Positions 2,169-31,090 are shown, counted from the stretch's first letter. The stretch is DNA of 43,835 nt from Methanobacteriota archaeon (GCA_029977385.1 JAPOKZ010000004.1:1-43835); one strand, 5' to 3'. Made by a program: numbers and translations. Notes: a model not told the origin generated them from the sequence alone.

Positions 2169-3071
2169 GTGGCTATTGTGATTGCTTGTGTCAACCACAA
2201 GGGAGGATGTGCTAGGACGACCACGGCGGTGAATCTTGCATCGGCCCTTTCTCTAGGGAGCGAGGAGTACGGGATTAGTAGCAGGAGGGTTCTGCTGGTA
2301 GACATGGATCCGAAGGGGAACGTGGCAACGACATTCGGAGTTGACAAAAGAACAGTCGGACCTACGATGAACGAGCTTTTTTCGAGGGGTGTTGATAACT
2401 CTGCACTAAAACTAGAGGACTGCACTCTTGGACCAGAATTTCTGACTAGGTCGATGAAGACATCATGGAGAAAGAGTAATCCGGAGAAGGTCAAGGGTCC
2501 GCCTAATCATATCGTAGTACGAAACTTATGGGTTCTTCCAGCTGACTTGGACCTATCTGGAATAGAAGTAGACCTAGCGACAAGAGTCGGTAGAGAGAAC
2601 AGACTCAAGCTGGCTCTGAGTGAAGCCATGGATAGTTTCGATGTTATCATTATCGATACTCCGGCATCACTAGGACTACTGACTGTGAATGCTCTGTGCG
2701 CCGCGGAGTGGGTCCTAATCCCAATCCAAGCAGAGTTCTATGCTCTGGAAGGAATGGGGCAGTTGATTTCCACGGTTAGAGATGTACAGAAATCGGTTAA
2801 CCCTAGTCTTGGATTGCTGGGCATACTGATGACGATGGTCCAGACTAGAAGCAAACTATGCGAGACAGTAACCGAGCACGCTAGGAAACACTTCGGGGAT
2901 AGAGTGTTTGATTCTCAGATACCGAGATCCGTATCTATCGCGGAGTCTCCTCTGGAAGGGGCTCCCATTGTAATAGCACAGAAGCCGAACAAGACAAACT
3001 CTGCAAGTAGAGCTTACTGGGAGTTCGCAAAGGAGGCAGACAGCAGAATCAATGCAATTTCTGATAGTTGA
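2169..3071 (+). CDS. ParA/Soj-family ATPase with atypical Walker A (KGGCARTT)
   Basis: NHKGGCARTTTAVNLA, VLLVDMDPKGN, IIIDTPASLGLLTVNAL, IPIQAEFYALEG, IPRSVSIAESP. Confidence 0.9.
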   Translation: MAIVIACVNHKGGCARTTTAVNLASALSLGSEEYGISSRRVLLVDMDPKGNVATTFGVDKRTVGPTMNELFSRGVDNSALKLEDCTLGPEFLTRSMKTSWRKSNPEKVKGPPNHIVVRNLWVLPADLDLSGIEVDLATRVGRENRLKLALSEAMDSFDVIIIDTPASLGLLTVNALCAAEWVLIPIQAEFYALEGMGQLISTVRDVQKSVNPSLGLLGILMTMVQTRSKLCETVTEHARKHFGDRVFDSQIPRSVSIAESPLEGAPIVIAQKPNKTNSASRAYWEFAKEADSRINAISDS

Positions 3072-3073
3072 AA

Positions 3074-4168
3074 CTAGGACTCATGGTGCTCCATGGCACT
3101 ATGCCTTGCATCGAGAAGTACTGCATCCATCTTCACACGAATCTCAGACTCTAGAGTCTTGATAATCTCGGAAACTTCTTTCTTCGAAAGTTCTCCTCTC
3201 TTCGCCAGCTGTTTTTCAAGATTAGAAAGCATCTCTGACTCGCGCTCCTTCACGAAATCTGCCACTCTCTGCTCCATCTCAACCTCGCTCTCAAGCGCCA
3301 GTTCTTGTCTTCTGAGGGCCAGTGCAGCCTCCATACTATTCCTCTCTGCCCTGAATCTCCGATCGAGATCGGAAAGAGCGGCCCTCTCCGCCTCTTCCTG
3401 TAGTGACTTGATTCTCACTTCGATATCAGACTGCATTTCCTTCTCAAGTGACTGTCGCTCATTCTCAAGCTGCTTCTCCAACTTTGACTCATGTTTTCTT
3501 CTCTTCTTGGCGATGTTGTCTCTCATCTTGATTTCCTGCTCTAAACGGAATGCCTCAGCCTTCCTGTGGACCTCTGACTCCATTGCCTCCCTGAGATCCA
3601 TCTCAACCCTTCTCTCCATCCTCTCAATTCCTTGGTTTGCCTCTAGCTCGAGCCTTTCTCCAAGGAAAGCCTTCCTGCGAGAGAACTCCACTTCCATCTC
3701 TTCCCTCAGACGATCCCTGACTCTCGATGTATGAGCCTCTATCCTACGGTCCCTCTCCAAATCCAACTGGTCTCTGAGTCTGTTTTCCTCTCTTCTGAGC
3801 TTATGTAGCATCTCCTCACGTAGCAGCCTTTCCTCTCTCTCTAGAGACTCCTTTTCCAGTCTCTCTAGTTCATCTTCCAATTCGTCTCTGAGATCGGCCT
3901 CTATCTGCTGAAGTTGCTCTTCGAATAGTATCTCATTCGCCTTCCTCATTGCACCCTGCATTCCAGAAACCCTATCTGTCATCTCAGAGATTCGCATTCT
4001 TCTCTCTCTTCTTATTGCGGAGCGAAGAGTAGACTCCTCATCGAGTCTCTCTCGGGCCCTCGCAGCTGCCCCCATGGCAGTGGAGGAAAGTGCATGCTCT
4101 GCTCTGAGGGCATCGAGCTCGTCAGGACCCTCATGCTCAACAGAATCATCCGGCTTGCTCTCACTCAC
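3074..4168 (-). CDS. E/R-rich long coiled-coil protein of unknown function
   Basis: Highly charged, Pro-free helical sequence over about 330 aa. GTG at 4168 is preferred because ATGAAA lies 30 nt upstream; the ORF extends to 4213. Confidence 0.75.
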   Translation of the reverse strand: MSESKPDDSVEHEGPDELDALRAEHALSSTAMGAAARARERLDEESTLRSAIRRERRMRISEMTDRVSGMQGAMRKANEILFEEQLQQIEADLRDELEDELERLEKESLEREERLLREEMLHKLRREENRLRDQLDLERDRRIEAHTSRVRDRLREEMEVEFSRRKAFLGERLELEANQGIERMERRVEMDLREAMESEVHRKAEAFRLEQEIKMRDNIAKKRRKHESKLEKQLENERQSLEKEMQSDIEVRIKSLQEEAERAALSDLDRRFRAERNSMEAALALRRQELALESEVEMEQRVADFVKERESEMLSNLEKQLAKRGELSKKEVSEIIKTLESEIRVKMDAVLLDARHSAMEHHES

Positions 4169-4270
4169 GCACCCATCCCCATTTCGACGCCCTTTCATGG
4201 GTATTTGAGACAAGAGGGTGGAAAGTAGCTAGAAATGCTGGTTTCTCTAGGCGTAATATATTCACGATAC

Positions 4271-19997: not shown

Positions 19998-20036
19998 GTG
20001 GTCAGCATTCATTTGCAATGAGATATACGGCAAAAC

Positions 20037-20594
20037 ATGCGAAGGATGTGGGCGCTTCTACTGGTCTGTCTGGTATCTTTGCCGGTCAGCGCGTCGCAAG
20101 GAGGCGTCAATGAGTCGATTTCTCTCGAAGGTACCAGCATCAAGGCGTTGAATTACGACGATGTAATGGGAACCAGAATCGGCACTTCTGATGGCGAATT
20201 TAGTTTGAATCTGGTGATGGATGATGGGGCTAACGTCTCTGAAATAAGATGGATCACCCAAGTTTGCATCAACTCTGGGGTTTGCTACCCCCCTCAAGAG
20301 AGTCGGATGGAACTAGTTGGTGATGGATCATTCGAATCTCATATTGATACTGAGCCCGGTTACTCATACATCAACTGGAAATTCATATTCGAGATGGAGA
20401 ACGGTTCTGAGTCCCATGTACCAGATGTTGGCTTCGGTTGGAGAGTCTGGTCCGACTGCTGGTTCGACAATGGCACGTGGGGGGGATCCGAGACATACTG
20501 CCGAGAGGAGGGCGATAGTGCCCTTCCGGGTTTCACTATTTCGTTGCTCATTGCATCGACTACTATGGCAGCCTTGATGGCAAGACGGGAATGA
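20037..20594 (+). CDS. Small secreted protein with PGF-CTERM-like archaeosortase anchor
   Basis: Signal peptide MRRMWALLLVCLVSLPVSA. C-terminal LPGF followed by a hydrophobic helix and RR. Confidence 0.75.
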   Translation: MRRMWALLLVCLVSLPVSASQGGVNESISLEGTSIKALNYDDVMGTRIGTSDGEFSLNLVMDDGANVSEIRWITQVCINSGVCYPPQESRMELVGDGSFESHIDTEPGYSYINWKFIFEMENGSESHVPDVGFGWRVWSDCWFDNGTWGGSETYCREEGDSALPGFTISLLIASTTMAALMARRE

Positions 20595-21280
20595 GTGGGC
20601 TCATGAGTTACAGCGATGTTGAGCCGGGATTCATCCCGCTTGAATACTCGGAGGTGGAAGAGGCAGAGATGCTTCGAATTGCGAAATCTTACTATGACCA
20701 AATGAACTCAAGGAGGACCACGCGTCACTTCTCCAACAAGAAAGTACCTAGAGAGTTGGTAGAATTAGCAATCAGGACTGCCAGCACAGCTCCCTCAGGG
20801 GCGCATCTCCAACCCTGGACTTTCGTGGCGATTTCAAACAGCGAGCTGAAGTCAAGGATAAGAGAGGCGGCAGAAGAAGAAGAGAGAAGATTCTACCAAG
20901 ACAGAATTCCGGAAGAGTGGGAGGAGGTCCTATCGCCTCTGGGAACAGACCACGTGAAGAGGCACATCACAGACGCACCTTGGGTTGTTGTACTATTCAG
21001 ACAATCAAAGAGGAAAAGAGGAGAGGGTATGGCTCCCACATACTACTCTCAAGAGTCCTGTGGGATCGCTGCTGGGATGTTCATCTCAGCAGTTCACAAT
21101 ATGGGCTTAGCGACCCTCCCCCACACTCCTTCCCCAATGGGTTTCCTTAGGGAAATCCTAGGACGCCCAGAGCATGAGCACGCAATGCTGCTGCTTCCAG
21201 TTGGTTATCCAGCAGAGGATGCAAGGGTACCAAATCTGGAAAGGAAGAGGCTCGAAGAGGTGTCCGAGTTCTGGGATTGA
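20591..21280 (+). CDS. Nitroreductase-fold FMN protein, iodotyrosine deiodinase (IYD)-like
   Basis: RRTTRHFS, TAPSGAHLQPWTFV, lid IREAAEEEERRFY...LGTDHVK, HTPSPMGFLREILGRP, LLLPVGYPA...VPNLERK. Confidence 0.85.
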   Translation: MSGLMSYSDVEPGFIPLEYSEVEEAEMLRIAKSYYDQMNSRRTTRHFSNKKVPRELVELAIRTASTAPSGAHLQPWTFVAISNSELKSRIREAAEEEERRFYQDRIPEEWEEVLSPLGTDHVKRHITDAPWVVVLFRQSKRKRGEGMAPTYYSQESCGIAAGMFISAVHNMGLATLPHTPSPMGFLREILGRPEHEHAMLLLPVGYPAEDARVPNLERKRLEEVSEFWD

Positions 21281-21309
21281 TTAAGTATCTCAGATTTTCA
21301 GGATGTTCC

Positions 21310-22542
21310 ATGAAGAGCAACAGAAGGAATGCCTTAGCGATTCTGCTAGCCCTACTAATGACCGCCTCTGTCCTATCCGGTTGCTCCGGAACTGACGAGG
21401 AATTGGATGACGAGCCCAAGGAATTGGAAGACTGGAGCGTTTTCCTAGTCCAGAGTTCTTCGGATCTTCCAACTTGCGATATCGTAACCGACGGAAGGCT
21501 CTACTATGTATCTTCAGAGTCAGGATTCCATGCATGCTCGAACGGTGCATGGCAGTCCATCGAACTAACTGGGCCCCCTGGGCCTCAGGGACCAGCTGGG
21601 GCTGACGGAGCAGACGGATCGATAGGGCCAGCAGGACCTGCAGGTGCTGACGGAGCAGATGGATCGATAGGTCCGTCTGGGCCTCCTGGGGCTGACGGGG
21701 CTGACGGGGATGATGGTACCTCTTTCACAATTATTGGAACCGTGGAGGAAACCACCGACCTGGGAGAGATATACATCGGAGAATCAGGAGACGCGTTCCT
21801 AGTTAACTCGACCGTTCACATCCATGTCTGGAGTGGGTCCGAATGGATAGATCTGGGGAACATCTCGGGACCACAGGGCCCGTCTGGGGAATCTGGTCCA
21901 GAGGGACCTATCGGTACAGAGGGTCCTCCCGGTGCTGATGGACTCTATGCACTCATCGACAGCACTGCATTGTCGACAGGAAGCGCAAACTGCCCAATGG
22001 GCGGAAATGCTGTGAGAATAGGGATGGATGATAACGGTGACGGGAATCTTGATCCTCTCGAGGTAGACCAGACCTTGTACGTCTGCAATGGAGTAAACGG
22101 TGTAGACGGAAATGACGGGACCGATGGCGCAGATGGGACCGATGGCGCAGATGGGACCGATGGCGCAGATGGCGCAGATGGCGCAGATGGTTCAATGCCC
22201 GTGGTGATGGAGATGACGGTCACCGTTTCGAGCATGGATTTCTACATTGATTCTATTCAACAGGCGGATGTAACACTATACAGGGGGTTCACCTACACCT
22301 TTGACCAATCTGCTTCTAGTAACTCCGCACACCCATTCAGACTGTCTACCACTAGTGATGGGACTCATGGAGGAGGAACCCAGTACACTGACGGGGTGAC
22401 GTATACGGGGACTCAGGGGTCGAGCGGCCTAATGACCTTCACAGTTCCATTGGATGCACCTGACACTCTGTACTACTACTGCCAGAACCACGGAAGCATG
22501 GGCGGAGAAATAACAATTCAGTCCCTAGGAAGCGTTTCCTGA
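21310..22542 (+). CDS. Collagen-like surface lipoprotein with C-terminal cupredoxin-like domain
   Basis: RR plus hydrophobic stretch and lipobox LSGC, three G-X-Y runs, a CPMGG...DDNGDGNLD...VCNG module, and C-terminal HPF...YYYCQNHGSM. Confidence 0.85.
   Translation: MKSNRRNALAILLALLMTASVLSGCSGTDEELDDEPKELEDWSVFLVQSSSDLPTCDIVTDGRLYYVSSESGFHACSNGAWQSIELTGPPGPQGPAGADGADGSIGPAGPAGADGADGSIGPSGPPGADGADGDDGTSFTIIGTVEETTDLGEIYIGESGDAFLVNSTVHIHVWSGSEWIDLGNISGPQGPSGESGPEGPIGTEGPPGADGLYALIDSTALSTGSANCPMGGNAVRIGMDDNGDGNLDPLEVDQTLYVCNGVNGVDGNDGTDGADGTDGADGTDGADGADGADGSMPVVMEMTVTVSSMDFYIDSIQQADVTLYRGFTYTFDQSASSNSAHPFRLSTTSDGTHGGGTQYTDGVTYTGTQGSSGLMTFTVPLDAPDTLYYYCQNHGSMGGEITIQSLGSVS
21598..21687 (+). 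repeat. Two imperfect 45-bp tandem units in the collagen region
   Basis: Units start at 21598 and 21643, both encoding GADGADGSIGPxGPx. Confidence 0.85.
22117..22188 (+). repeat. Perfect coding tandem repeat (GGGACCGATGGCGCAGAT)x3 + (GGCGCAGAT)x2
   Basis: Read directly from the sequence; encodes GTDGAD x3 and GAD x2. Confidence 0.92.
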
Positions 22543-23490
22543 TTCGCTATTCTCTTCTGGTGGGAAGACGAAGACAAGTGCGATTCCAGACCCCACGACC
22601 AATGCACCCCCCAGCCAATCTGCGAGGGAAAGCGATTCACCGAATAGGAAGAAGCCGTAGAAAGTTGCAACGAGTACCGTAAGGTAGGAAAATGCACTAA
22701 CCCATGCAGCATTGGCCTTATGGTATGCCATGGTGATTCCTAATTGTCCCCCTCCGGCACCGATTCCGATACCAACTAGAGCTGCAATAGTGTTTGAGTC
22801 AATCTCGGAGATATTTGGTACGGACTGGACTATGCTTCCAGCAACAGAGAAGGCTGCGAACCAGAATATGACGGTAGCTGGAGAGTCGGTCTTTCTGAGT
22901 TCCCTGACGTACATGTATGCCAATGCCGCGAAGAATCCTGAACCTAGAGCAAGAAGAGCGTTAGGATCTACAGTTCCTACCTCTGGAGAGACAATTAGAA
23001 CAATTCCAGCGAAAGCGGTCAGTACCAGCGTTGTCACCGACGGGGAAACCCTCTCGGCCAATATCCTCCCAGAAAGTAGAGCAACGAATAGAGGACCAGT
23101 GTACTGGAGAGTTACAGCCTGACCAATTGGAATCCTTCCAAGTGCGGTGAAGTAGAGAATCATGGCAATTAGCCCTACTACGCACCTAAGCAACATGGTC
23201 CTGCGATCGTTTACCTTCAGACTAATTCCCTTAGAAGCGGCGAAGGCTGCAACTGCAAAGGCGATAACGGCTGATCTGACCATGATTATCATCCAAACAT
23301 CAGTGTGGTCGCTAGTCCATTTGACTAATGCATTCATGGTCCCAAAGCAGATGCTTCCAAAGATCATCCAGATGACCGCTGCCTTGGGGGAGTCGGGCAT
23401 CCTTTCCTCGGTTACGAAAGACGACAGGTCCGGACCTTCAGTTTTGTAGAAAATCTCATCTAGACCCCTACCAAGACCACTTTTAGACAT
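22525..23490 (-). CDS. EamA/DMT-family membrane transporter with N-terminal ParB-like LGRGL peptide
   Basis: About 10 hydrophobic helices with DMT motifs (LLRCVVG, ALGRIPIGQAVTLQYTGPLFVALL, LAERV, AYHKANAAWVSAFSY, FLFGE). In-frame N-terminus MSKSGLGRGLDEIF begins 3 nt after the parA stop. Confidence 0.9.
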   Translation of the reverse strand: MSKSGLGRGLDEIFYKTEGPDLSSFVTEERMPDSPKAAVIWMIFGSICFGTMNALVKWTSDHTDVWMIIMVRSAVIAFAVAAFAASKGISLKVNDRRTMLLRCVVGLIAMILYFTALGRIPIGQAVTLQYTGPLFVALLSGRILAERVSPSVTTLVLTAFAGIVLIVSPEVGTVDPNALLALGSGFFAALAYMYVRELRKTDSPATVIFWFAAFSVAGSIVQSVPNISEIDSNTIAALVGIGIGAGGGQLGITMAYHKANAAWVSAFSYLTVLVATFYGFFLFGESLSLADWLGGALVVGSGIALVFVFPPEENSESGNAS

Positions 23491-23493
23491 AAT

Positions 23494-24444
23494 TCAGAGA
23501 CTCCATCTGTGTTGAAGCTCTGTTGCAATATCCTGGTAATCTTTACCGCCAGGGCTAGAAGGATCGTGTAGATGGATAGGAATCCCGTGACTCGGTGCCT
23601 CGGCGAGTCTTACGTTCCTCCTGATCGCTGGCCTGACGACTAAGTCAGGGAAGTTTTCCAAGACCTCTCCTGCAACCTGCTTGTTCAGAAGTGTCTGGGA
23701 GTGCATCGTCAACAGTACTCCATCCACTCCTAATCTCTCGTTGAGTAGGCTCCTTACTTCTCTGATGGTCCCTGATAGCAAAGCTAGTCCCTCAAGAGCG
23801 AAGTATTCCGTCTGGACAGGGACTAGAATTCCATCAGAGGCCACTAGTGCGTTGATTGTTACCAGACCTAGTGAAGGAGGGGTGTCGATTAGAACCAGAT
23901 CGTAATGTGCTAGAAGTGGTTGAAGTGCCTCCTTCATTCTCTTCTCCCTTCCAAGCTGTCTCATCATCTCCTGCTCTAGTCCGATAAGGCTCCTGTCTCC
24001 GACTATGATGTGTAGGTTCTCTACGGCAGTTGCATGCCTGGAGTCTACTGCTGTCTCTGGACTAAGGATTAGGTCCCTTGTGGTATTCTTGACTTTGCTC
24101 TTATCCACTCCTAGACCTGTGGCACAGTTCCCCTGTGAATCTGAGTCAATAACCAGGACTCTGAACCCTCTAAGCGCAATCTGAGCTGCGACGTTGATTA
24201 CTGTGGTAGTTTTGCCCACCCCTCCCTTCTGATTAATCACGGTAACTACTCTGCCCCTCCCTGGGGGAGTGGGCAGGGAAGTTGGGAGTTCCATCGCGCT
24301 TTTAGTCCGCGAAAAACTGACTTCCTCGATTGAGTCAAGAGGTTCGGCTAGAGTTTCGTCCTCTTCTTCCATGAATTCGACATCGATAATTAGTGGAGCC
24401 TTGCCGACTTCTGGAAGACTTTGGTCACCATCCTTCGAAGCCAT
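23494..24444 (-). CDS. parA: ParA/Soj-family ATPase with acidic N-terminal extension
   Basis: INQKGGVGKTTT, IDSDSQGN, IDTPPSLGLVTINAL, VPVQTEYFALEGL, IRRNVRLAEAPSHGIP. Confidence 0.93.
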   Translation of the reverse strand: MASKDGDQSLPEVGKAPLIIDVEFMEEEDETLAEPLDSIEEVSFSRTKSAMELPTSLPTPPGRGRVVTVINQKGGVGKTTTVINVAAQIALRGFRVLVIDSDSQGNCATGLGVDKSKVKNTTRDLILSPETAVDSRHATAVENLHIIVGDRSLIGLEQEMMRQLGREKRMKEALQPLLAHYDLVLIDTPPSLGLVTINALVASDGILVPVQTEYFALEGLALLSGTIREVRSLLNERLGVDGVLLTMHSQTLLNKQVAGEVLENFPDLVVRPAIRRNVRLAEAPSHGIPIHLHDPSSPGGKDYQDIATELQHRWSL

Positions 24445-24513
24445 CTAGAGCAACGGCAGTCAATGATGTGTTGAATATGACGCTTGACAGAAGGTCAGTG
24501 ATGGTGATTTTTC

Positions 24514-26604
24514 TCACTCGCTAGGTCTGTCGATGAGCCACCAAATTACCATCTCTCCAGTCTCCGAGTCCATGGCCAAATCAACTGACATTTCTCGTCC
24601 GGCTTCTTCCCATTCCCTAACTGCGTTCATTGTTACCTTTCCATCTCCCAAGTCACCTGGAAGGAGGCTCAGGACCTCATTATCCTCTGTGACGGATAGC
24701 CTGTAACCAACCTCAGCTTGGAGGTTCCAAGATTCTCCGGACTGGATGTATGGAGACAGGGCAGGATACCTCTCGGGTTCCAGAATCCTTGATTCCAGTA
24801 AAGAGAGAGTCTGAGTACTAGGGATAGAGTCTCTATTCCAAGTCACCTCTCCCCTATCATTAGAGCCCGTTGAAATCATCTCACAGCCTTCAGATGATCT
24901 CCGAAGTACCAGCCAACCAGAGTCATCGTCATCGTCAACCCAAGACATGTTCCATTCCGGTTCAGAAGTAGGCCTCGACCAAGAGGCCCTCCAGATATAT
25001 CCTCCAGATTCTACAGCCAAGGTTGCCTGAGTATCCGGATATCTAGATTTGAGGCAAGCTACTGCCTCCTCCATATCGAACTGTCTAATTTCTGTTTCGT
25101 CCCACATGGAGTCAACCCAGTTCCTCTTTGTTGATGTGCCTGGCCTATCCTCACCATCTGCGGGACTCCCTGGATAGTTCCTTTCCCAATCGATTTCACT
25201 ACTTCCGATAGTAGAAGAAATTCTGGAGAATGTCATGCTAATACTGAGAGTTCCTTCGGGCAGGAGTTCATCCGATAGGGTGCTAACTAGGAAGTCGCAA
25301 TCGTTTGTCTGGAGTTCCTTGTCCAGCCTTATGTCAGCAACCTGCTTGACAGGCCAAGGACTCCCATCCTTCAGGTGCAGTAGAATTGTAGCATGCCCAT
25401 AGCACCTTCCAATTTCCTCATGATCAAGATAAACAGGATACACTAGACCATGAGTATCATCCCTGAACTCCTTCTTCACTTCCCATTTCCAATCGGAATT
25501 CCAGCCTAGATCTGGATCGGAAGAACTCGCTCCCTCCTTGATCACGGCCTCTCCAAAGAATTCGTGTAGCTCAATTGGGGTTAGTGGAAAGGAAAGGGTG
25601 GGTAAGAGAGCACCCAAACCTCCGATTCCCTCAGAGTCGTAGGTTACCGTCCTAGCATTCGTTGTTACCGAATCCACGTCGCTGAACGAGATTGAGGTAT
25701 CGGTCCTCTTCACCTCTGTCTTCTCCAGTTCCACCCAGCTGGTTGACTCCATACTCAGGTCATTTCCGGACATTACCCAACGAATATTCCCACAGTCTGT
25801 GTTCGCATCGTCCCTCCAAGTTCTTCCCTCGAAATCAACGTCTAGATCGAGTCTTATTCCCTTCTCTGCAGACAAGAAACCTGTTCTTCCTAGGCTATCT
25901 GTAGTTTCTACTGCTCCCGAATTAGGTCCTTCGGTTACTGATACCAAACCAGTACCACCCATATCCATCGACACCTCCCCACATGCCGGTTCAAGAATCC
26001 CACCACTAGAGTCCCTCACCACAGAGAGCATCTCCTCCCCGTCTATGCTTATTCTCGAGTCGATTACCTGGAAGTCCATCCTATCTCCATACCTCAACTT
26101 CGCTACCTCGAAACCCGAACTACGTTGTAGGAAAACGGTAGTTGCTGCCCCCACGAGGATGACCACAACTATGATCGCTGCTAGGGCCTTCCATTTGTCT
26201 CCCAATGAAGAAATAGAAGGCATAGAGATGACCAAAGAAGGCTGATCGTCCTCTGCCACTATTACCGATTCAGCATCCCCGGATATCTCAGATTCCGTTG
26301 TTAAGACCTCGGCCTCGACAACCTCGGCTTCCACGATGTTATCGATTTTAGATAGGACCTGATTCACCTTTACTCGTGTATCATCTGGTTCTTCATCCAT
26401 GACTAGAGCGTCCTCTTGCTCCCAATCGTCTTCTTCGGAAATTTCTACAGGCTCCTCAATCACCCCTGCATCCTCAAGTATTCTATCTACCAATTCCGAT
26501 TTCTTTCCCGAGACAAGTAGTCCCCGCTTCTTGCACATTTCCCTAAGCTTCGCAACCGTGTTCGAGGTAAGCGACTCTCTGTCAATTGAATCGTCTTCGG
26601 GCAT
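24514..26604 (-). CDS. SAP-domain single-pass membrane protein
   Basis: N-terminal SAP motif LTSNTVAKLREMCKKRGLLVSGKKSELVDRI, acidic linker, one TM helix (ALAAIIVVVILVGAATTVFL), then about 535 aa of acidic, Trp/Cys-containing sequence. Confidence 0.82.
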   Translation of the reverse strand: MPEDDSIDRESLTSNTVAKLREMCKKRGLLVSGKKSELVDRILEDAGVIEEPVEISEEDDWEQEDALVMDEEPDDTRVKVNQVLSKIDNIVEAEVVEAEVLTTESEISGDAESVIVAEDDQPSLVISMPSISSLGDKWKALAAIIVVVILVGAATTVFLQRSSGFEVAKLRYGDRMDFQVIDSRISIDGEEMLSVVRDSSGGILEPACGEVSMDMGGTGLVSVTEGPNSGAVETTDSLGRTGFLSAEKGIRLDLDVDFEGRTWRDDANTDCGNIRWVMSGNDLSMESTSWVELEKTEVKRTDTSISFSDVDSVTTNARTVTYDSEGIGGLGALLPTLSFPLTPIELHEFFGEAVIKEGASSSDPDLGWNSDWKWEVKKEFRDDTHGLVYPVYLDHEEIGRCYGHATILLHLKDGSPWPVKQVADIRLDKELQTNDCDFLVSTLSDELLPEGTLSISMTFSRISSTIGSSEIDWERNYPGSPADGEDRPGTSTKRNWVDSMWDETEIRQFDMEEAVACLKSRYPDTQATLAVESGGYIWRASWSRPTSEPEWNMSWVDDDDDSGWLVLRRSSEGCEMISTGSNDRGEVTWNRDSIPSTQTLSLLESRILEPERYPALSPYIQSGESWNLQAEVGYRLSVTEDNEVLSLLPGDLGDGKVTMNAVREWEEAGREMSVDLAMDSETGEMVIWWLIDRPSE

Positions 26605-26735
26605 GCTCTGTGACTCAGTCCCACCCTGAGGCTTTCAATCTCTCCGACTTCATGAGCCCTCCAACGCACACTCGGCATAGAGTAACGAATTCCCGAGGGA
26701 AAGGGTTGAAGACGGTCTTTTGGGCGGCGCAGAAC

Positions 26736-27686
26736 ATGGAGCCAAGGCTAGTACTACTCTCCAGAGGTCCAGAGCTGTACAGTACCAGAAGGCTGGCTAC
26801 AGAGGCAGAGAGAGCAGGATGGATGGTTGACATCATCGATCCTCTTGCGCTAACCATCGTCGTAGATGAGGACGGCGGAAGAGTGTTCCACAAGGGATGG
26901 CCCGTAGAGTGCGAGGCCATCTTGCCTAGAATCGGCTATTCCATCACCCGCAGAGGAGTTGCGATAGTCAGGCAGTTCGAACAAACCGGAGTGATAGTAC
27001 TCAACTCGAGTCAGGGAATTCTGAGAAGTAGGGACAAGCTGGTGGCTTGCCAGATGATGGCTGAGGCTCGCGTTCCGGTTCCTATTACGGCGCACGTTGG
27101 AGCATGGGAGGACACTGATCGCGCTGTTAGGAGGGTCGGAGGAGCTCCGTGTGTCGTCAAGTCAACAGAGGGGACCCATGGCTCAGGCGTTTTTCTGGTA
27201 AACTCTTCGCCGCAGGCCAGACAACTGGTGTTCCAGATGCTTGAGAGAGGAATGAGGCCTCTGGTACAGGAGTATGTCAAGGAGTCACACGGTAGTGACG
27301 TTAGAGCACTAGTTGTTGGCGGAGAGGTTGTTGCATCGATGCGACGCAAGGCACATGGGAGCGAGTTCCGCTCGAACTTCCACCTAGGGGGGTCAGTTAC
27401 AGGAGTAGATTTGACGGAAGAGCAGAGGAGAATTGCTACACTTTCTGCAGAGACTCTGGGGCTCGAGGTGGCAGGAGTAGATATGCTCGAGTCGGACAGA
27501 GGGCCATTGGTGCTGGAAGTAAACTCCAGCCCGGGACTAGAGGGGATCGAGAGTGCAACCAAGGTAAACGTAGCAGAGAAGGTGGCAAATCACCTTCACG
27601 GGCTCTATTCCAAGAGAATAGAGAGTTCAGGAGATTCTCAGTTCCCCATCGGTTCCAGCGGAAACGAGTCCGAGCACGCTCTGTGA
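26736..27686 (+). CDS. rimK: RimK-family ATP-grasp alpha-L-glutamate ligase
   Basis: LLSRGPELYSTRRL, ILPRIG, SRDKL, GTHGSGV, VQEYV, FRSNFHLGG, GVDMLES, LEVNSSPGLEGIE. Confidence 0.9.
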   Translation: MEPRLVLLSRGPELYSTRRLATEAERAGWMVDIIDPLALTIVVDEDGGRVFHKGWPVECEAILPRIGYSITRRGVAIVRQFEQTGVIVLNSSQGILRSRDKLVACQMMAEARVPVPITAHVGAWEDTDRAVRRVGGAPCVVKSTEGTHGSGVFLVNSSPQARQLVFQMLERGMRPLVQEYVKESHGSDVRALVVGGEVVASMRRKAHGSEFRSNFHLGGSVTGVDLTEEQRRIATLSAETLGLEVAGVDMLESDRGPLVLEVNSSPGLEGIESATKVNVAEKVANHLHGLYSKRIESSGDSQFPIGSSGNESEHAL

Positions 27687-27763
27687 GGCTCTCGGCGATT
27701 TTTCGCAACTACCCCAATACGTTCCGCCCTACGGTAGGATAGAGAAGCATTCAAGTCACAATA

Positions 27764-27822
27764 CGCCTCCATGCCGACGTCCTACGGGACAGGGATGCAC
27801 ATGCCGTTCGCGGCTGGAGGCG
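27764..27822 (+). ncRNA. Candidate structured RNA element (three-way junction, two UNCG loops)
   Basis: CGCCTCCA/TGGAGGCG closing stem enclosing GTCC-TACG-GGAC and GCCG-TTCG-CGGC hairpins. Confidence 0.4.
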
Positions 27823-27880
27823 AGAAGGGTTGAACAAAGAAGGGAGAAACAGAGAGACGGTATTCGCACCAAGAGGGAGA

Positions 27881-28948
27881 TTGGGCCAGAGGTTCGATTC
27901 TGATGATGTCGGTCTTTCTGACACGCTGCCTTCGAGATTGTACAGGATTTCAGAGCTTCAATGGCACGAATGCTGGTTACAACAGCTCCGCTCGGAAAAA
28001 AAGAGTGCGCACACCATTAGAGCATACGACGTGGCAGCTAGAGCGTTTTCAACCACCTCTCTTCCGGGAGAAGGGGCTCTGGCATGGGGGGATTCTTCCA
28101 GAATTCCAGTGAGAGATTTCCATCTCTTTGCCGATCCAAACAATGGAAGAATGGATGCTTGGATGAATGGACTCGGGGAGCTTAAGCCAGCTACCATTAA
28201 TGCAAAGATTGCTGCCCTAACCCACCTTTTGAAATGGCTCGGTCACATCGTCCCGGACTGGATACAAAGGCCATCTAGAAGTCGGTCTCTTCCGAAGACT
28301 CTGGGCAAAAGAGAGTTGGATAGACTCAGAAGGGCAATCAGCGATTCCGAAGACCCGTTAGCAATGCCCGTATCCACTCTGATGCTAGATACTGGGCTAA
28401 GGGTCTCGGAGCTTTGCGCTCTCGATATTGACGACATAGACAAGGAAGACCTATCGGCGTTGGTGATAGGTGGTAAGGGAGAGAAAGATAGAACCGTACT
28501 ATTCACGAAAAAATCGGTTGAAGTCCTGGAATCATGGGAGCCTATCAGAGAGAGTAGGATCAGGGGGAGCGAAGACTTCGGTCTTAGGGCTATGTTCGTT
28601 TCTAGCAGAGGGCGCAGAATCAACCCTCGCTCGATACAGAAGATGATGGACAGACTAGCTGATGCCGCAGACATCCCGAAGAGCAGGCTTAGCCCCCATA
28701 CACTGAGGCATACTTTCGCTACTGGCCTACTAGAGAGGGGTGCGGACCTGGTCACCATCCAGAGACTTCTAGGACATTCGAGCATAGCAACCACCAGGGT
28801 ATACCTGGAGATAGGAGATCAGACCCTCAGAGAGATTTACCACAGGGCGCAGAGGAGCCCTCCTCCTAGACTGGAATCTGAAACGAATGAGGATGAAGTT
28901 CAGGAGATGGTGGAGAAGTCGGCAGGAAGTATTCCAACGGAGCTCTAG
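27881..28948 (+). CDS. xerA: Tyrosine recombinase XerA-like
   Basis: Full catalytic set: TGLRVSE, GKG, HTLRH, LLGH, TTRVY. Start uncertain (TTG 27881 after GAGGGAG; ORF extends to 27830). Confidence 0.88.
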   Translation: MGQRFDSDDVGLSDTLPSRLYRISELQWHECWLQQLRSEKKSAHTIRAYDVAARAFSTTSLPGEGALAWGDSSRIPVRDFHLFADPNNGRMDAWMNGLGELKPATINAKIAALTHLLKWLGHIVPDWIQRPSRSRSLPKTLGKRELDRLRRAISDSEDPLAMPVSTLMLDTGLRVSELCALDIDDIDKEDLSALVIGGKGEKDRTVLFTKKSVEVLESWEPIRESRIRGSEDFGLRAMFVSSRGRRINPRSIQKMMDRLADAADIPKSRLSPHTLRHTFATGLLERGADLVTIQRLLGHSSIATTRVYLEIGDQTLREIYHRAQRSPPPRLESETNEDEVQEMVEKSAGSIPTEL

Positions 28949-30033
28949 TCAGAGAAGTTTACCTTCCAACCATACTCATCCAAGTGGAACCAGTTCACAA
29001 TGAACTCCTCTTCCTTGTAGGAGAACCAAGCTCTTGTGGGCACAACGCTAGTGTATCGATCATGCTGGACCCTCTTGATCGTATCAGATATTTCCGAGTC
29101 CAGATACGTGAAGCCCTCCCACAGCCTTCCCTTCTTGATTAGGAATTTCTCTTCCTTTGGTTGTTCTTTGAAGTGCATCCCCCTCCAGAGGAAATAAGGC
29201 CAACCATCGCGATCGTCCAATTCTGATATCTTACCGTAAGAGCCCCTCATAGAAGGCCTACTGTCCAGAAGATGGCTGACTACGGGAATCTCGGATCCAT
29301 CTCTTCCCATTCTGATGATTATGTATGCACATGTGTGATACGGCGCCCTTGGGAAGCCATCCTTGGGAAGCATCAGTGGCCTAACGGCACTGAAATCGAT
29401 CTCCTGGAATTCTTCTGTGAGCCTTACAGAGCCTCCAATACCTCCATCCCCCCCATTATGTAGCACGTCTATCTCTCCAAACTCACTGATCCAACCCTGA
29501 TCTGCCTTGACCTCGAGTCTCGCCTCGCTAAGTGGCCAGTCCCAGAACGTCATCGACCTCTCTTTTCGCACAGCAGAGCTAACTCCAGAGAGGTTTGAGC
29601 TAACTTTTCCCTCGAAAGATTTAGGCATTCCAGAGTGGATTCTTGCAATTATTGGAGTTCCTGCGTTTCTCACCTCTACTTGTGCTTCCAGCTGTAGTGG
29701 AGCCTGAAGCCTCTCACTGTCAAATCCAAAAATAATTGAGAACTTGTTTGGCTTTGAGAAAATCTCCTCGCTGGTAATCCTGAGAGCATCGTATCTCTGG
29801 CCCCTTCTTTTGGAGACTATCTCGACGTTCACTAAAGGTTCCTCACCCCCGTCAAGTCCCAAGACCTGCGCAGTACAAGTCAAGTCAGGAAACCTACCAG
29901 AGAGGAAGATTGGTTCGAAGAAGAAGTCTGCAACGTAGGGGTCAATTTCAATTGAGTTCTCCCCTACATCCACGACACACCGTATTCTCCCTAGGTTCTG
30001 CCCAGAATAATCAGGCACAGAAGAATTAGTCAT
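28945..30033 (-). CDS. Hypothetical protein (362 aa)
   Basis: Long ORF with ATG start and a TTCAA box 29 nt upstream. No recognised motif. Confidence 0.7.
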   Translation of the reverse strand: MTNSSVPDYSGQNLGRIRCVVDVGENSIEIDPYVADFFFEPIFLSGRFPDLTCTAQVLGLDGGEEPLVNVEIVSKRRGQRYDALRITSEEIFSKPNKFSIIFGFDSERLQAPLQLEAQVEVRNAGTPIIARIHSGMPKSFEGKVSSNLSGVSSAVRKERSMTFWDWPLSEARLEVKADQGWISEFGEIDVLHNGGDGGIGGSVRLTEEFQEIDFSAVRPLMLPKDGFPRAPYHTCAYIIIRMGRDGSEIPVVSHLLDSRPSMRGSYGKISELDDRDGWPYFLWRGMHFKEQPKEEKFLIKKGRLWEGFTYLDSEISDTIKRVQHDRYTSVVPTRAWFSYKEEEFIVNWFHLDEYGWKVNFSD

Positions 30034-30064
30034 CGATCCGGGGTTGGGATGTGAGTCTTGAATC

Positions 30065-30259
30065 TCACCTTTTTGCAGGGTTCTTCTTGTTACTGCGCTT
30101 CGAGACTGACCCGGGCCCCTTCCACTTCCTACTGGCCCCTTCCTGATATCCCGGGTGCCCCTCTATTGGGCAATGCTTCCCTGACCTGCATCTGCTGCAG
30201 TTATCTGGAGGAGGTCGCTCAACCACCTTCTGTAGCTTCCCATACTTCCGGCGGGGCAT
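30065..30259 (-). CDS. Small basic Cys/His (zinc-finger-like) protein
   Basis: 64 aa, K/R-rich, CSRC...HC...H. Fills the gap between flanking genes. Confidence 0.6.
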   Translation of the reverse strand: MPRRKYGKLQKVVERPPPDNCSRCRSGKHCPIEGHPGYQEGASRKWKGPGSVSKRSNKKNPAKR

Positions 30260-30337
30260 AATTAGTCACTGGAATGGGAGGGACTTAGCGATTACCGTAC
30301 ACGTAACTTTGAACCACTCTCGCTATTTCTGGTTTGC

Positions 30338-31090
30338 ATGGGAGAGCGAGCGGACACTAACAAGGGGCCAGTGGGAGTCAATCCCCAACGTTCAGTACTA
30401 TTCGCACAGGTGAGTGGCTCCGATCCAAGAATGGCTTTCGACGAGGAGGGGACCATGCACCAGTTCGGAACAATGGGCTCATTTGGGAAGGTGTATCTGG
30501 GAGATGTAGCCAGAGCAGCTCTGAGATCACTAGGTACGCATGACCCTCCAGTATTCACCGAGATGCCAAGAGTTGATGAGCAAAGATGGAGGTTAGAATG
30601 CGAGACGGAAGAAATCAGGATGGTCATTTCAAGTTGGCACTACTGGGGATTCGGGCTGTTTGCCAAATGCTTCCTGAACGAGATAGTAATCGAAGGACCT
30701 CTGCAAACCAGAGCCAGATGCGTTATGGACATCGTGGCATCTTTGGGACGTAACCCTTGGGAGCCTGTCCGAGTAAGAGCATTCGAGAGAGCCACATCCG
30801 GAGCGATTTCGGAGCATACCTCAAGTTGGGAGGGTCTAATCTCCGTAGCAAGGGAGAGTATGAGCGACGATATCTCCAGACTGCAGGACTCAATTCACAA
30901 AATGAGAGGGATTGACGAGTCTGGAGATGAGATGCTAGACTCTGCAGATGGGGCTCTTGACAGGGCCAGAGAGGCACTTGCAGACAAGAACGCGCCTGCA
31001 GTAGATAGGGCTCTGAGTAGGGCCTCCAGCGCCATAGTGAGAGCAGATCCGAATTCGGAACTGGGAGCGATGGAGAGGGAACTCCTGTAG
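30338..31090 (+). CDS. Hypothetical protein (250 aa)
   Basis: Long ORF with TTGAA 29 nt upstream of the ATG and a helical C-terminus. Confidence 0.75.
   Translation: MGERADTNKGPVGVNPQRSVLFAQVSGSDPRMAFDEEGTMHQFGTMGSFGKVYLGDVARAALRSLGTHDPPVFTEMPRVDEQRWRLECETEEIRMVISSWHYWGFGLFAKCFLNEIVIEGPLQTRARCVMDIVASLGRNPWEPVRVRAFERATSGAISEHTSSWEGLISVARESMSDDISRLQDSIHKMRGIDESGDEMLDSADGALDRAREALADKNAPAVDRALSRASSAIVRADPNSELGAMERELL

Follow-up and report, generated by a model that had tools for sequence, protein, structure and literature searches.

The window analysed here is a stretch of 43,835 nucleotides (nt) of DNA from a Methanobacteriota archaeon (GCA_029977385.1 JAPOKZ010000004.1:1-43835). It contains three minus-strand genes in series, which encode a membrane protein with an N-terminal SAP motif and a transmembrane (TM) segment (SAP-TM), a Soj-type ParA ATPase, and a polytopic membrane protein of the EamA/drug-metabolite transporter (DMT) family (Table 1). 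We propose, with a probability of about 0.5, that this locus is a ParB-less ParA module of the Poseidoniales, in which the partner of ParA would be defined by a portable ParB-type N-terminal tag and not by a ParB body. The locus appears to be a real and apparently undescribed variant of the scheme in which ParA works with a tagged partner, and we infer its cellular role below. An initial annotation, made from the DNA alone, had suggested that the system was new, and our literature searches likewise found no description of the arrangement.

Marine group II archaea, although uncultured, rank with the most abundant members of the plankton. How archaea of the Euryarchaeota type segregate their chromosomes is, to our knowledge, largely unexplained. 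The locus is a testable handle: it has a Soj-type ParA, and a partner that is recognisable only by a tag of ~30 residues.

A ParB-type arm on a membrane protein encoded directly after ParA

Open reading frames (ORFs) were located and translated from the window, and the window proteins were scanned against Pfam and NCBIfam. These analyses bore out the three co-oriented genes of the initial annotation, with products of 696 (SAP-TM), 316 (ParA) and 321 (EamA) amino acids (aa). The gap between the SAP-TM and ParA genes is 69 nt. As a spacer of just 3 nt separates the stop of ParA from the start of EamA, the EamA gene is predicted to be translationally coupled to ParA. Contigs from RNA libraries (two studies) cover parts of all three genes and one crosses the SAP-TM/ParA junction; neither transcription nor co-transcription can be demonstrated from contigs, DNA carry-over is possible, and we drew no conclusion from them.

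The EamA protein scored 90 bits against Pfam PF00892 (cut-off 28.2; best stretch residues 38-167), reached no NCBIfam equivalog at its cut-off, and has 9-10 hydrophobic segments by the hydropathy scan with which all TM segments were called. Its mean column identity was 77% over 34 species. The stretch outside the EamA domain, with which the protein begins, reads MSKSGLGRGLDEIF. This had been annotated as a ParB-type N-terminal arm, placed on a membrane protein that follows ParA, and both the starts of bacterial ParBs and the codon variation described below uphold that description. For comparison we used three bacterial records, each with a ParA 42-44% identical to the window ParA and then an annotated ParB. 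These ParBs, encoded directly after the ParA homologues, begin KRPRPGLGRGLGALL, KNKPRGLGRGLSALM and KSRGLGRNLSVLL, and have in common with the EamA arm a pattern of basic residues followed by GLGR[GN]L. The N-terminus of bacterial ParB interacts with ParA and promotes its ATPase activity, according to the text available from PMC6393308.

Relatives of the EamA gene were collected by a pattern scan, with one genome kept per species, and neighbouring genes were placed by tblastn. This gave 80 loci of the EamA clade, the small-genome lineage to which the window belongs, with titles that name Poseidoniales, Thalassarchaeaceae or marine group II in all but one. The arm is present in 53 of the 80 proteins, two of which have R8 replaced (L007 and L025, with GLGISL and GLGMGL). 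In 54 arm-bearing sequences, L6, G7, L10 and P20 were invariant and R8 was kept in 52, while EamA identity among arm-bearing species falls as low as 63%. A second block, PDLSSF, lies at a fixed spacing of 15-16 residues from GLGRGL. The invariance of the core residues, despite 4-6 synonymous codons for each, argues that the arm peptide is under purifying selection and is not a chance motif.

Where the arm occurs in this order, the gene coupled to ParA appears to be the only one in the genome to encode it. A strict DNA pattern for the arm gave one hit per genome, at the post-ParA gene, in three of five arm-bearing genomes (the other two have variant arms), and no match in any of five arm-less genomes; in the 27 arm-less loci, no ORF within ~8 kb began with an arm-like sequence. 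When the 36-aa arm was used as a query, there was no match in plasmids and only a chance, MCM-related match in the PDB (E 0.41). The EamA gene has an internal stop codon in the assemblies of three species (L059, G128 and G172), which could stem from sequencing error or pseudogenisation.

The order of the genes is kept in every related locus where the contig permits, which answers the synteny check proposed with the initial annotation. ParA lies directly before EamA in 79/80 loci, the sole miss being a contig that begins at the EamA gene, and SAP-TM precedes ParA in 78/80, with both misses at contig ends. The RimK-family and Xer-type recombinase genes are present in 68/80 loci (12 misses, at contig ends).

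The sister clade has a small soluble protein with a homologous arm

We extended the comparison to a sample of 201 genomes of the order. A ParA orthologue was found in 103 of these and EamA was matched in 65 (64 orthologues and one hit at 28% identity). ParA and EamA occurred together in 64 genomes, EamA without ParA in none, and EamA together with the small protein described here in none. All 39 ParA loci without EamA in this sample were fetched and read. The order in 36 of them was SAP-TM, ParA and then a soluble protein of 130-163 aa; two of the three loci without the small protein after ParA are at contig ends. The nitroreductase gene that is found beyond EamA in the window clade also lies beyond the small protein in 15/39 loci.

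The small protein begins with a K/R-rich stretch and continues GLGRGL(D/G)(D/E)L..Q(H/N)D.DLPFL.AYG in an alignment of 24 sequences. It belongs to no Pfam or NCBIfam family and had no significant profile match in the PDB (best E 0.029), and its own profile gave only 91 matches at E <=1e-3 among 1.84 billion representative proteins. An alignment by hhalign of EamA residues 1-32 with the arm of the small protein had a probability of 82% (E 1.1e-5 over 32 columns). The small-protein profile had no match in eight EamA-clade genomes, while two control genomes gave 1.5e-47 and 4.6e-51. In a ParA tree of 117 rows, with branch support from the Shimodaira-Hasegawa-like approximate likelihood-ratio test (SH-aLRT), the EamA clade and the small-protein clade were split by a branch with 99% support.

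The simplest reading is that the small-protein gene had its body exchanged for that of an EamA gene at the same site, with the first ~30 codons kept, and that the EamA arm was thus inherited from the small soluble protein. An origin of the locus in the division of ParB's two jobs between two membrane proteins, as the initial annotation had suggested, does not agree with this history.

We considered whether the small protein is SegB and ruled this out, as the C-terminal signature motif of SegB is missing from the 24-sequence alignment, judged by eye. A protein of 1162 aa (P0200) matched the small-protein arm profile in five stretches, and may carry repeated arm-like peptides.

The ParB-like core of the arm in genomes without ParA

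The small-protein profile matched in 125/201 genomes of the order, including 87 with no ParA search match (one genome counted without ParA, G007, has a run of N inside ParA). Small-protein genes were read from 43 ParA-less genomes. In 26 of these the gene is directly after SAP-TM, and a short run of acidic residues at the start of the protein is followed by RGLDHLMEQN..EL.FLSAYGG. The gene is away from SAP-TM in the other 17, where the sequence reads ..K(S/Q)RDLDHLMEQN... Of the small proteins linked to ParA, 32/36 have the core L-x-[RK]-[GS]-L, compared to 1/43 of those from ParA-less genomes; these are counts of sequences and not of independent events, the ParA-less genomes probably representing few lineages. 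By these counts, the half of the arm nearer the N-terminus, which is the ParB-like one, co-varies with the presence of ParA, the behaviour expected of a ParA tag.

ParB-type arms in other Thermoplasmatota

In a sample of 401 genomes from the phylum, ParA matches above 57% identity were all in genomes already in the order sample. Soj-like ParAs of 36-47% identity occur in other Thermoplasmatota. At 16 of 20 such loci an overlapping or adjacent downstream gene has a start of the form (A/G)(L/M)G(K/R)(G/S)(L/M/I) and a non-ParB body. These proteins begin MSKAALGKGMKDLI, MAKKAMGRGLKALI, MKKGKLALGRGLKELL, KKKGLGKSLNELI or similar, with bodies of 100-487 aa. At three further loci (L253, L254 and L255) ParA is fused to a C-terminal extension of 370-680 residues and there is no separate partner; the remaining locus has neither an arm-bearing downstream gene nor a fusion.

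A Pfam scan of nine partner-region proteins from these Thermoplasmatota found no ParB domain. One locus (L240) has two arm-bearing genes in tandem after ParA, encoding 239 aa and then 763 aa with strong TPR repeats; others among the partner-region proteins gave weak C-terminal TPR or zinc-ribbon matches. With an arm at 16/20 loci and a ParB domain in none of the nine proteins scanned, it looks as if the whole phylum tends to place a ParB-type tag on partners other than ParB, the transporter being the most unusual of the bodies.

Searches for ParB

The initial annotation had noted the absence of parB from the window. We found no ParB among the 28 window proteins scanned against Pfam, which comprise all non-overlapped ORFs of >=180 aa except one cut by the window end. 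The absence extended to relatives: ParB_N exceeded its cut-off in 0/5 close genomes and in 13/201 genomes of the order, where every match was a stand-alone ORF of 144-293 aa and none was beside ParA. These small stand-alone 'DGHHR' proteins were considered as the missing ParB and rejected, because they show no linkage to ParA and are found in genomes without ParA as well. They are ParB_N/sulfiredoxin-like and are scattered through Poseidoniales; the two that were read are at 1489-1908 of L082 (139 aa) and 1333-1857 of L081 (174 aa).

ParA and SAP-TM

The window ParA behaved in these comparisons as the Soj-like protein with an intact KGGVGKT that had been annotated. Its best PDB matches were to a bacterial ParA (8RAY, 1.5e-58), Thermus Soj (1WCV, 4e-51) and Helicobacter pylori Soj (6IUB, 8e-41). 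In its Walker A motif, NQKGGVGKTT, residues K73, G74, G75, V76, K78 and T79 were invariant in 43 orthologues. Also invariant in the 43 were R276 and D102, the latter aligned with the Asp that is Ala in the Soj chains of 2BEK and 8JMJ. The available text of PMC6393308 names four lysines in the DNA-binding patch of H. pylori Soj. In our own alignment three of these map to basic residues (K199 to K255, K227 to R276 and K230 to R279), and the fourth maps to S296. The NCBIfam ParA_partition model scored 93.6 for the window ParA, compared to an equivalog cut-off of 180.

Residues 1-60 of ParA have a net charge of -11, and contain a motif, LPEV..APLI.DVEF, that is kept in both the EamA and the small-protein clade. 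The ParAs of other Thermoplasmatota are without this N-terminal extension. A second ParA-like ATPase is encoded in the window at 2169-3071 (AAA_31, 6e-43), directly after a MoxR-type AAA gene (1143-2129) and convergent with a gene for a 379-aa, E/R/K-rich and coiled-coil-looking protein without a family (3074-4213). A paralogue of the first ParA, at 38-41% identity, was found in 5/5 large genomes searched and may be this second gene; three of the five lack the first ParA.

SAP-TM consists of a cytoplasmic SAP domain, an acidic linker (26 acidic residues in the 83 before the TM segment), one TM segment and an ectodomain of ~535 aa without a known family. The annotated single-pass membrane protein with an N-terminal SAP motif is therefore confirmed by its Pfam match and its one TM segment. 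The SAP motif was seen in nearly all complete homologues from both clades; L057 and L191 lack it, and L041 begins inside it. Six Cys residues are invariant in the ectodomain, and would fit an outward C-terminal domain and an inward SAP domain. A search of the ectodomain against the Atlas found only unnamed Thermoplasmatota clusters. The SAP-TM profile matched in 201/201 genomes of the order, compared to 103/201 for ParA, so that the idea of SAP-TM as a dedicated partner of ParA did not survive.

Proposed mechanism

If the arm acts as a ParA tag, ParA-ATP dimers would coat the nucleoid, binding DNA non-specifically; we suggest this step because basic residues stand opposite three of the four Helicobacter Soj DNA-contact lysines in the alignment and the catalytic Asp is retained. 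The cytoplasmic tail of EamA would then bind the ParA dimer and trigger ATP hydrolysis through R8, as the N-terminus of ParB does. Because the tag would be fixed in the membrane, ParA would be engaged and turned over at the envelope. The output could be a nucleoid that is tethered or patterned relative to the envelope beside SAP-TM, or a membrane protein that is distributed over the nucleoid. SAP-TM, the constant upstream neighbour, may serve as a constitutive DNA-to-membrane link with or without ParA, and would not be one half of a ParB. We rate the step between tag and ParA as about as probable as the module itself, and the cellular role as less so.

A wider proposal is more tentative, and we put it somewhat below an even chance. 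It holds that ParB-less ParA systems occur throughout the Thermoplasmatota and that the ParB-type tag has moved among TPR, zinc-ribbon and lineage-specific small proteins and a DMT transporter of the Thalassarchaeaceae. The transporter would there be an integral-membrane activator of ParA, and a universal SAP-domain tether between DNA and membrane would lie next to the site at the envelope where nucleoid-bound ParA is turned over. If true, this would be a membrane-anchored mode of chromosome positioning, with natural tag swapping that re-assigns ParA to new cargo.

The relatives supply natural controls, in which the tag is on a soluble protein, on a membrane transporter or lost, and in which the ParB-like core is missing where ParA is missing. 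Should the tag bind ParA, the ParA-contact peptide of ParB would work apart from ParB, and the locus would exemplify in nature the 'luggage tag' principle that has been put forward for the engineering of ParA/MinD systems. Should it not bind, a strongly conserved ParB-like peptide on a transporter would need another explanation.

Evidence against the module and alternative readings

Several observations weigh against a ParA module built on the arm. In 27/80 EamA-clade species the protein is arm-less, with a short unrelated N-terminus, and ParA is intact, and in two more species R8 is replaced by I or M. Loss of the arm needs three changes on the ParA tree, at least two of them by well-supported branches. 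The mean pairwise identity of ParA is 0.811 in arm-less species, against 0.784 for comparison, and no ParA column showed convergent change in the arm-less clades. As ParA is equally conserved there, the arm is evidently dispensable and not essential to ParA. The window arm has a net charge of -2 (residues 1-36), compared to the positive tags of the cited partners, and SAP-TM occurs independently of ParA. The synteny of the EamA clade is weak evidence of function because the whole neighbourhood (XerA, RimK and nitroreductase) is syntenic. No centromere-like repeat array was found in 20000-30500, where the only repeats are collagen-like and coding; as the helix-turn-helix (HTH) of ParB is absent, no parS consensus is expected. 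Finally, genomes without ParA still have the distal half of the arm (RGLDHLMEQN..L.FLSAYG), which suggests that this half serves something other than a window-type ParA, possibly SAP-TM, its constant neighbour.

The loss of the arm in some species is what would be expected if it were a decaying relic of the gene replacement, carried along with the 5' end that holds the ParA-coupled start, with EamA being just an adjacent transporter. About three independent losses in 27/80 species with ParA and EamA intact, the replacement of R8 in L007 and L025, the lack of a compensating change in ParA, and an EamA body far more conserved than the linker residues of the arm all fit such a relic. A neutral relic would not be expected to keep its core invariant in 54/54 sequences that use 4-6 synonymous codons for each core residue and reach as low as 63% EamA identity, or to keep both GLGRGL and PDLSSF at fixed spacing, and the EamA orthologue is never found without ParA (0/64). 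We therefore consider a relic unlikely. Rather than decay, the presence of the distal half without ParA could mean that the arm has a different partner, either the cytoplasmic region of SAP-TM or the second ParA-like ATPase (2169-3071), with ParA an optional insert in an older pair of SAP-TM and small protein. SAP-TM and the small protein are adjacent without ParA in 26/43 ParA-less loci, the distal motif is kept there, SAP-TM is matched in all 201 genomes of the order sample, and a paralogue that may be the second ParA-like gene was found in each of the five large genomes searched, including three without the first ParA. However, the part of the arm that is missing without ParA is exactly the ParB-like core of basic residues and L-G-R-G-L (1/43 vs 32/36), and the arm-bearing gene is always coupled to the stop codon of the first ParA and never beside the second. 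Of the readings considered, we regard this one as the least probable.

ParA-like ATPases space carboxysomes or chemoreceptor arrays. ParA might similarly position a membrane cargo, either EamA or an envelope complex of EamA and SAP-TM, along a nucleoid track, and not the chromosome. The tag would then be on the putative cargo itself, as in the available text of PMC10241942, where the partners are described as physical components of the cargo. Neither centromere-like repeats near the locus nor a site-specific DNA-binding partner (by the small-protein and ParB_N searches) was found, and the bodies of the partners vary widely across the phylum (TPR, zinc ribbon or no known family). Yet the ParA is closest to chromosomal Soj proteins, its constant neighbours are a Xer-type recombinase and a SAP protein of DNA-binding type, and we know of no reason for a DMT transporter to be spaced. 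We give a membrane cargo the same low standing as a relic. It shares the step between tag and ParA with the proposed ParB-less module, and nothing here separates the two.

Comparison with known systems

The locus resembles bacterial ParABS (Soj/Spo0J) in having a Soj-type ParA with a deviant Walker A motif and a coupled downstream gene whose product starts with basic residues and GLGRGL. It differs in that the partner is a 9-10-TM EamA protein without a ParB_N/CTPase domain, HTH or dimerisation domain, in the lack of parS-like repeats in the 20000-30500 interval, and in the additional SAP-TM gene upstream. SAP-TM itself recalls the HeH/LEM and SAP proteins of the eukaryotic inner nuclear membrane, in which a helix-extension-helix (HeH) DNA-binding module is tethered to the membrane by a TM segment. 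The homology ends at the SAP motif, and SAP-TM, unlike these proteins, has a large cysteine-rich ectodomain.

The partners of ParA/MinD ATPases are described, in the available text of PMC10241942 (Pulianmackal et al. 2023), as binding through a charged, disordered N-terminus, a 'luggage tag', with the rest of the protein given over to the cargo. In the McdAB, MinDE, FlhG and ParC systems covered there, the ATPase is addressed by a short peptide at the N-terminus of the partner, while the body defines the cargo, which resembles the occurrence here of one type of tag on different bodies. Compared to the systems in that text, the present tag is of ParB type on a non-ParB body, which in the window is an integral membrane transporter, the system is archaeal, and the arm is net acidic.

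SegAB of the Sulfolobales likewise pairs a ParA-type ATPase of archaea with a small partner encoded after it, the N-terminal region of which contacts the ATPase (PMC12139799). In contrast to SegB, both the small protein and EamA lack the C-terminal signature motif (again by eye), and the window ParA is closest to bacterial Soj. The available text of PMC12139799 reports SegB in Thermoproteota and a few Euryarchaeota and makes no mention of Thermoplasmatota. The AspA-ParB-ParA cassette of pNOB8 is also archaeal and of three genes, one protein binding DNA and another contacting ParA, as far as the available text of PMC6393308 describes it. Its components are all soluble and plasmid-borne, and it is a linker of its ParB, a protein with a ParB-like N-domain, that makes the contact with ParA, whereas here there is no ParB domain and membrane proteins make up two of the three.

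Features and neighbouring genes

Table 1. Coordinates in the window of the three-gene locus, its features and its neighbours.
Feature	Coordinates	Strand	Basis
EamA/DMT-family polytopic membrane protein, 321 aa	22525..23490	-	Pfam EamA 2e-25, two stretches; hydropathy
Cytoplasmic N-terminal arm of EamA, residues 1-36, with GLGRGLDEI and GPDLSSF	23383..23490	-	Outside EamA domain; synonymous variation
GLGRGL core with R8, residues 5-10	23461..23478	-	Same core at bacterial ParB N-termini
Spacer of 3 nt, ParA stop to EamA start	23491..23493	.	Coordinates; spacing recurs in relatives
Soj-type ParA, 316 aa, with acidic N-terminal extension of ~60 residues	23494..24444	-	AAA_31 6e-54, plus CbiA and MipZ
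Deviant Walker A KGGVGKT of ParA, residues 73-79	24208..24228	-	Sequence
SAP-TM gene, 696 aa	24514..26604	-	ORF; Pfam SAP; hydropathy and charge
Single TM segment of SAP-TM, residues 141-159	26128..26184	-	Hydropathy, mean 2.85 over 19 residues
SAP domain, residues 12-44	26473..26571	-	PF02037 E 8e-10, 38.5 bits vs cut-off 23.9
RimK-family ATP-grasp ligase, divergent neighbour (context only)	26586..27686	+	Pfam RimK 1.8e-49; TIGR00768 225.6 bits vs cut-off 143.4
Xer-type tyrosine recombinase (context)	27830..28948	+	Phage_integrase 1.2e-36

The Xer-type recombinase gene starts 1226 nt from the start of the SAP-TM gene, with the RimK-family gene between them. Its product scored 176.1 bits against XerA_Arch (NF040815; cut-off 220) and 182 against the XerC model (cut-off 335).

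On the other side of the locus, a gene for a 421-aa protein with collagen repeats and DUF7151 (21277-22542) runs towards EamA from the opposite direction, and the two share 18 nt at the 3' end of EamA; this gene is restricted to nearer relatives. One contig among the relatives (L018) is titled as a metagenome-assembled genome of Acidiferrobacter and has the complete Poseidoniales block at 79-81% identity, which is probably a binning error. Adjoining the Xer-type recombinase is a gene for a 362-aa protein (28945-30033) with no Pfam or NCBIfam family, which was found in 26/80 related loci, among the closer relatives by EamA identity.

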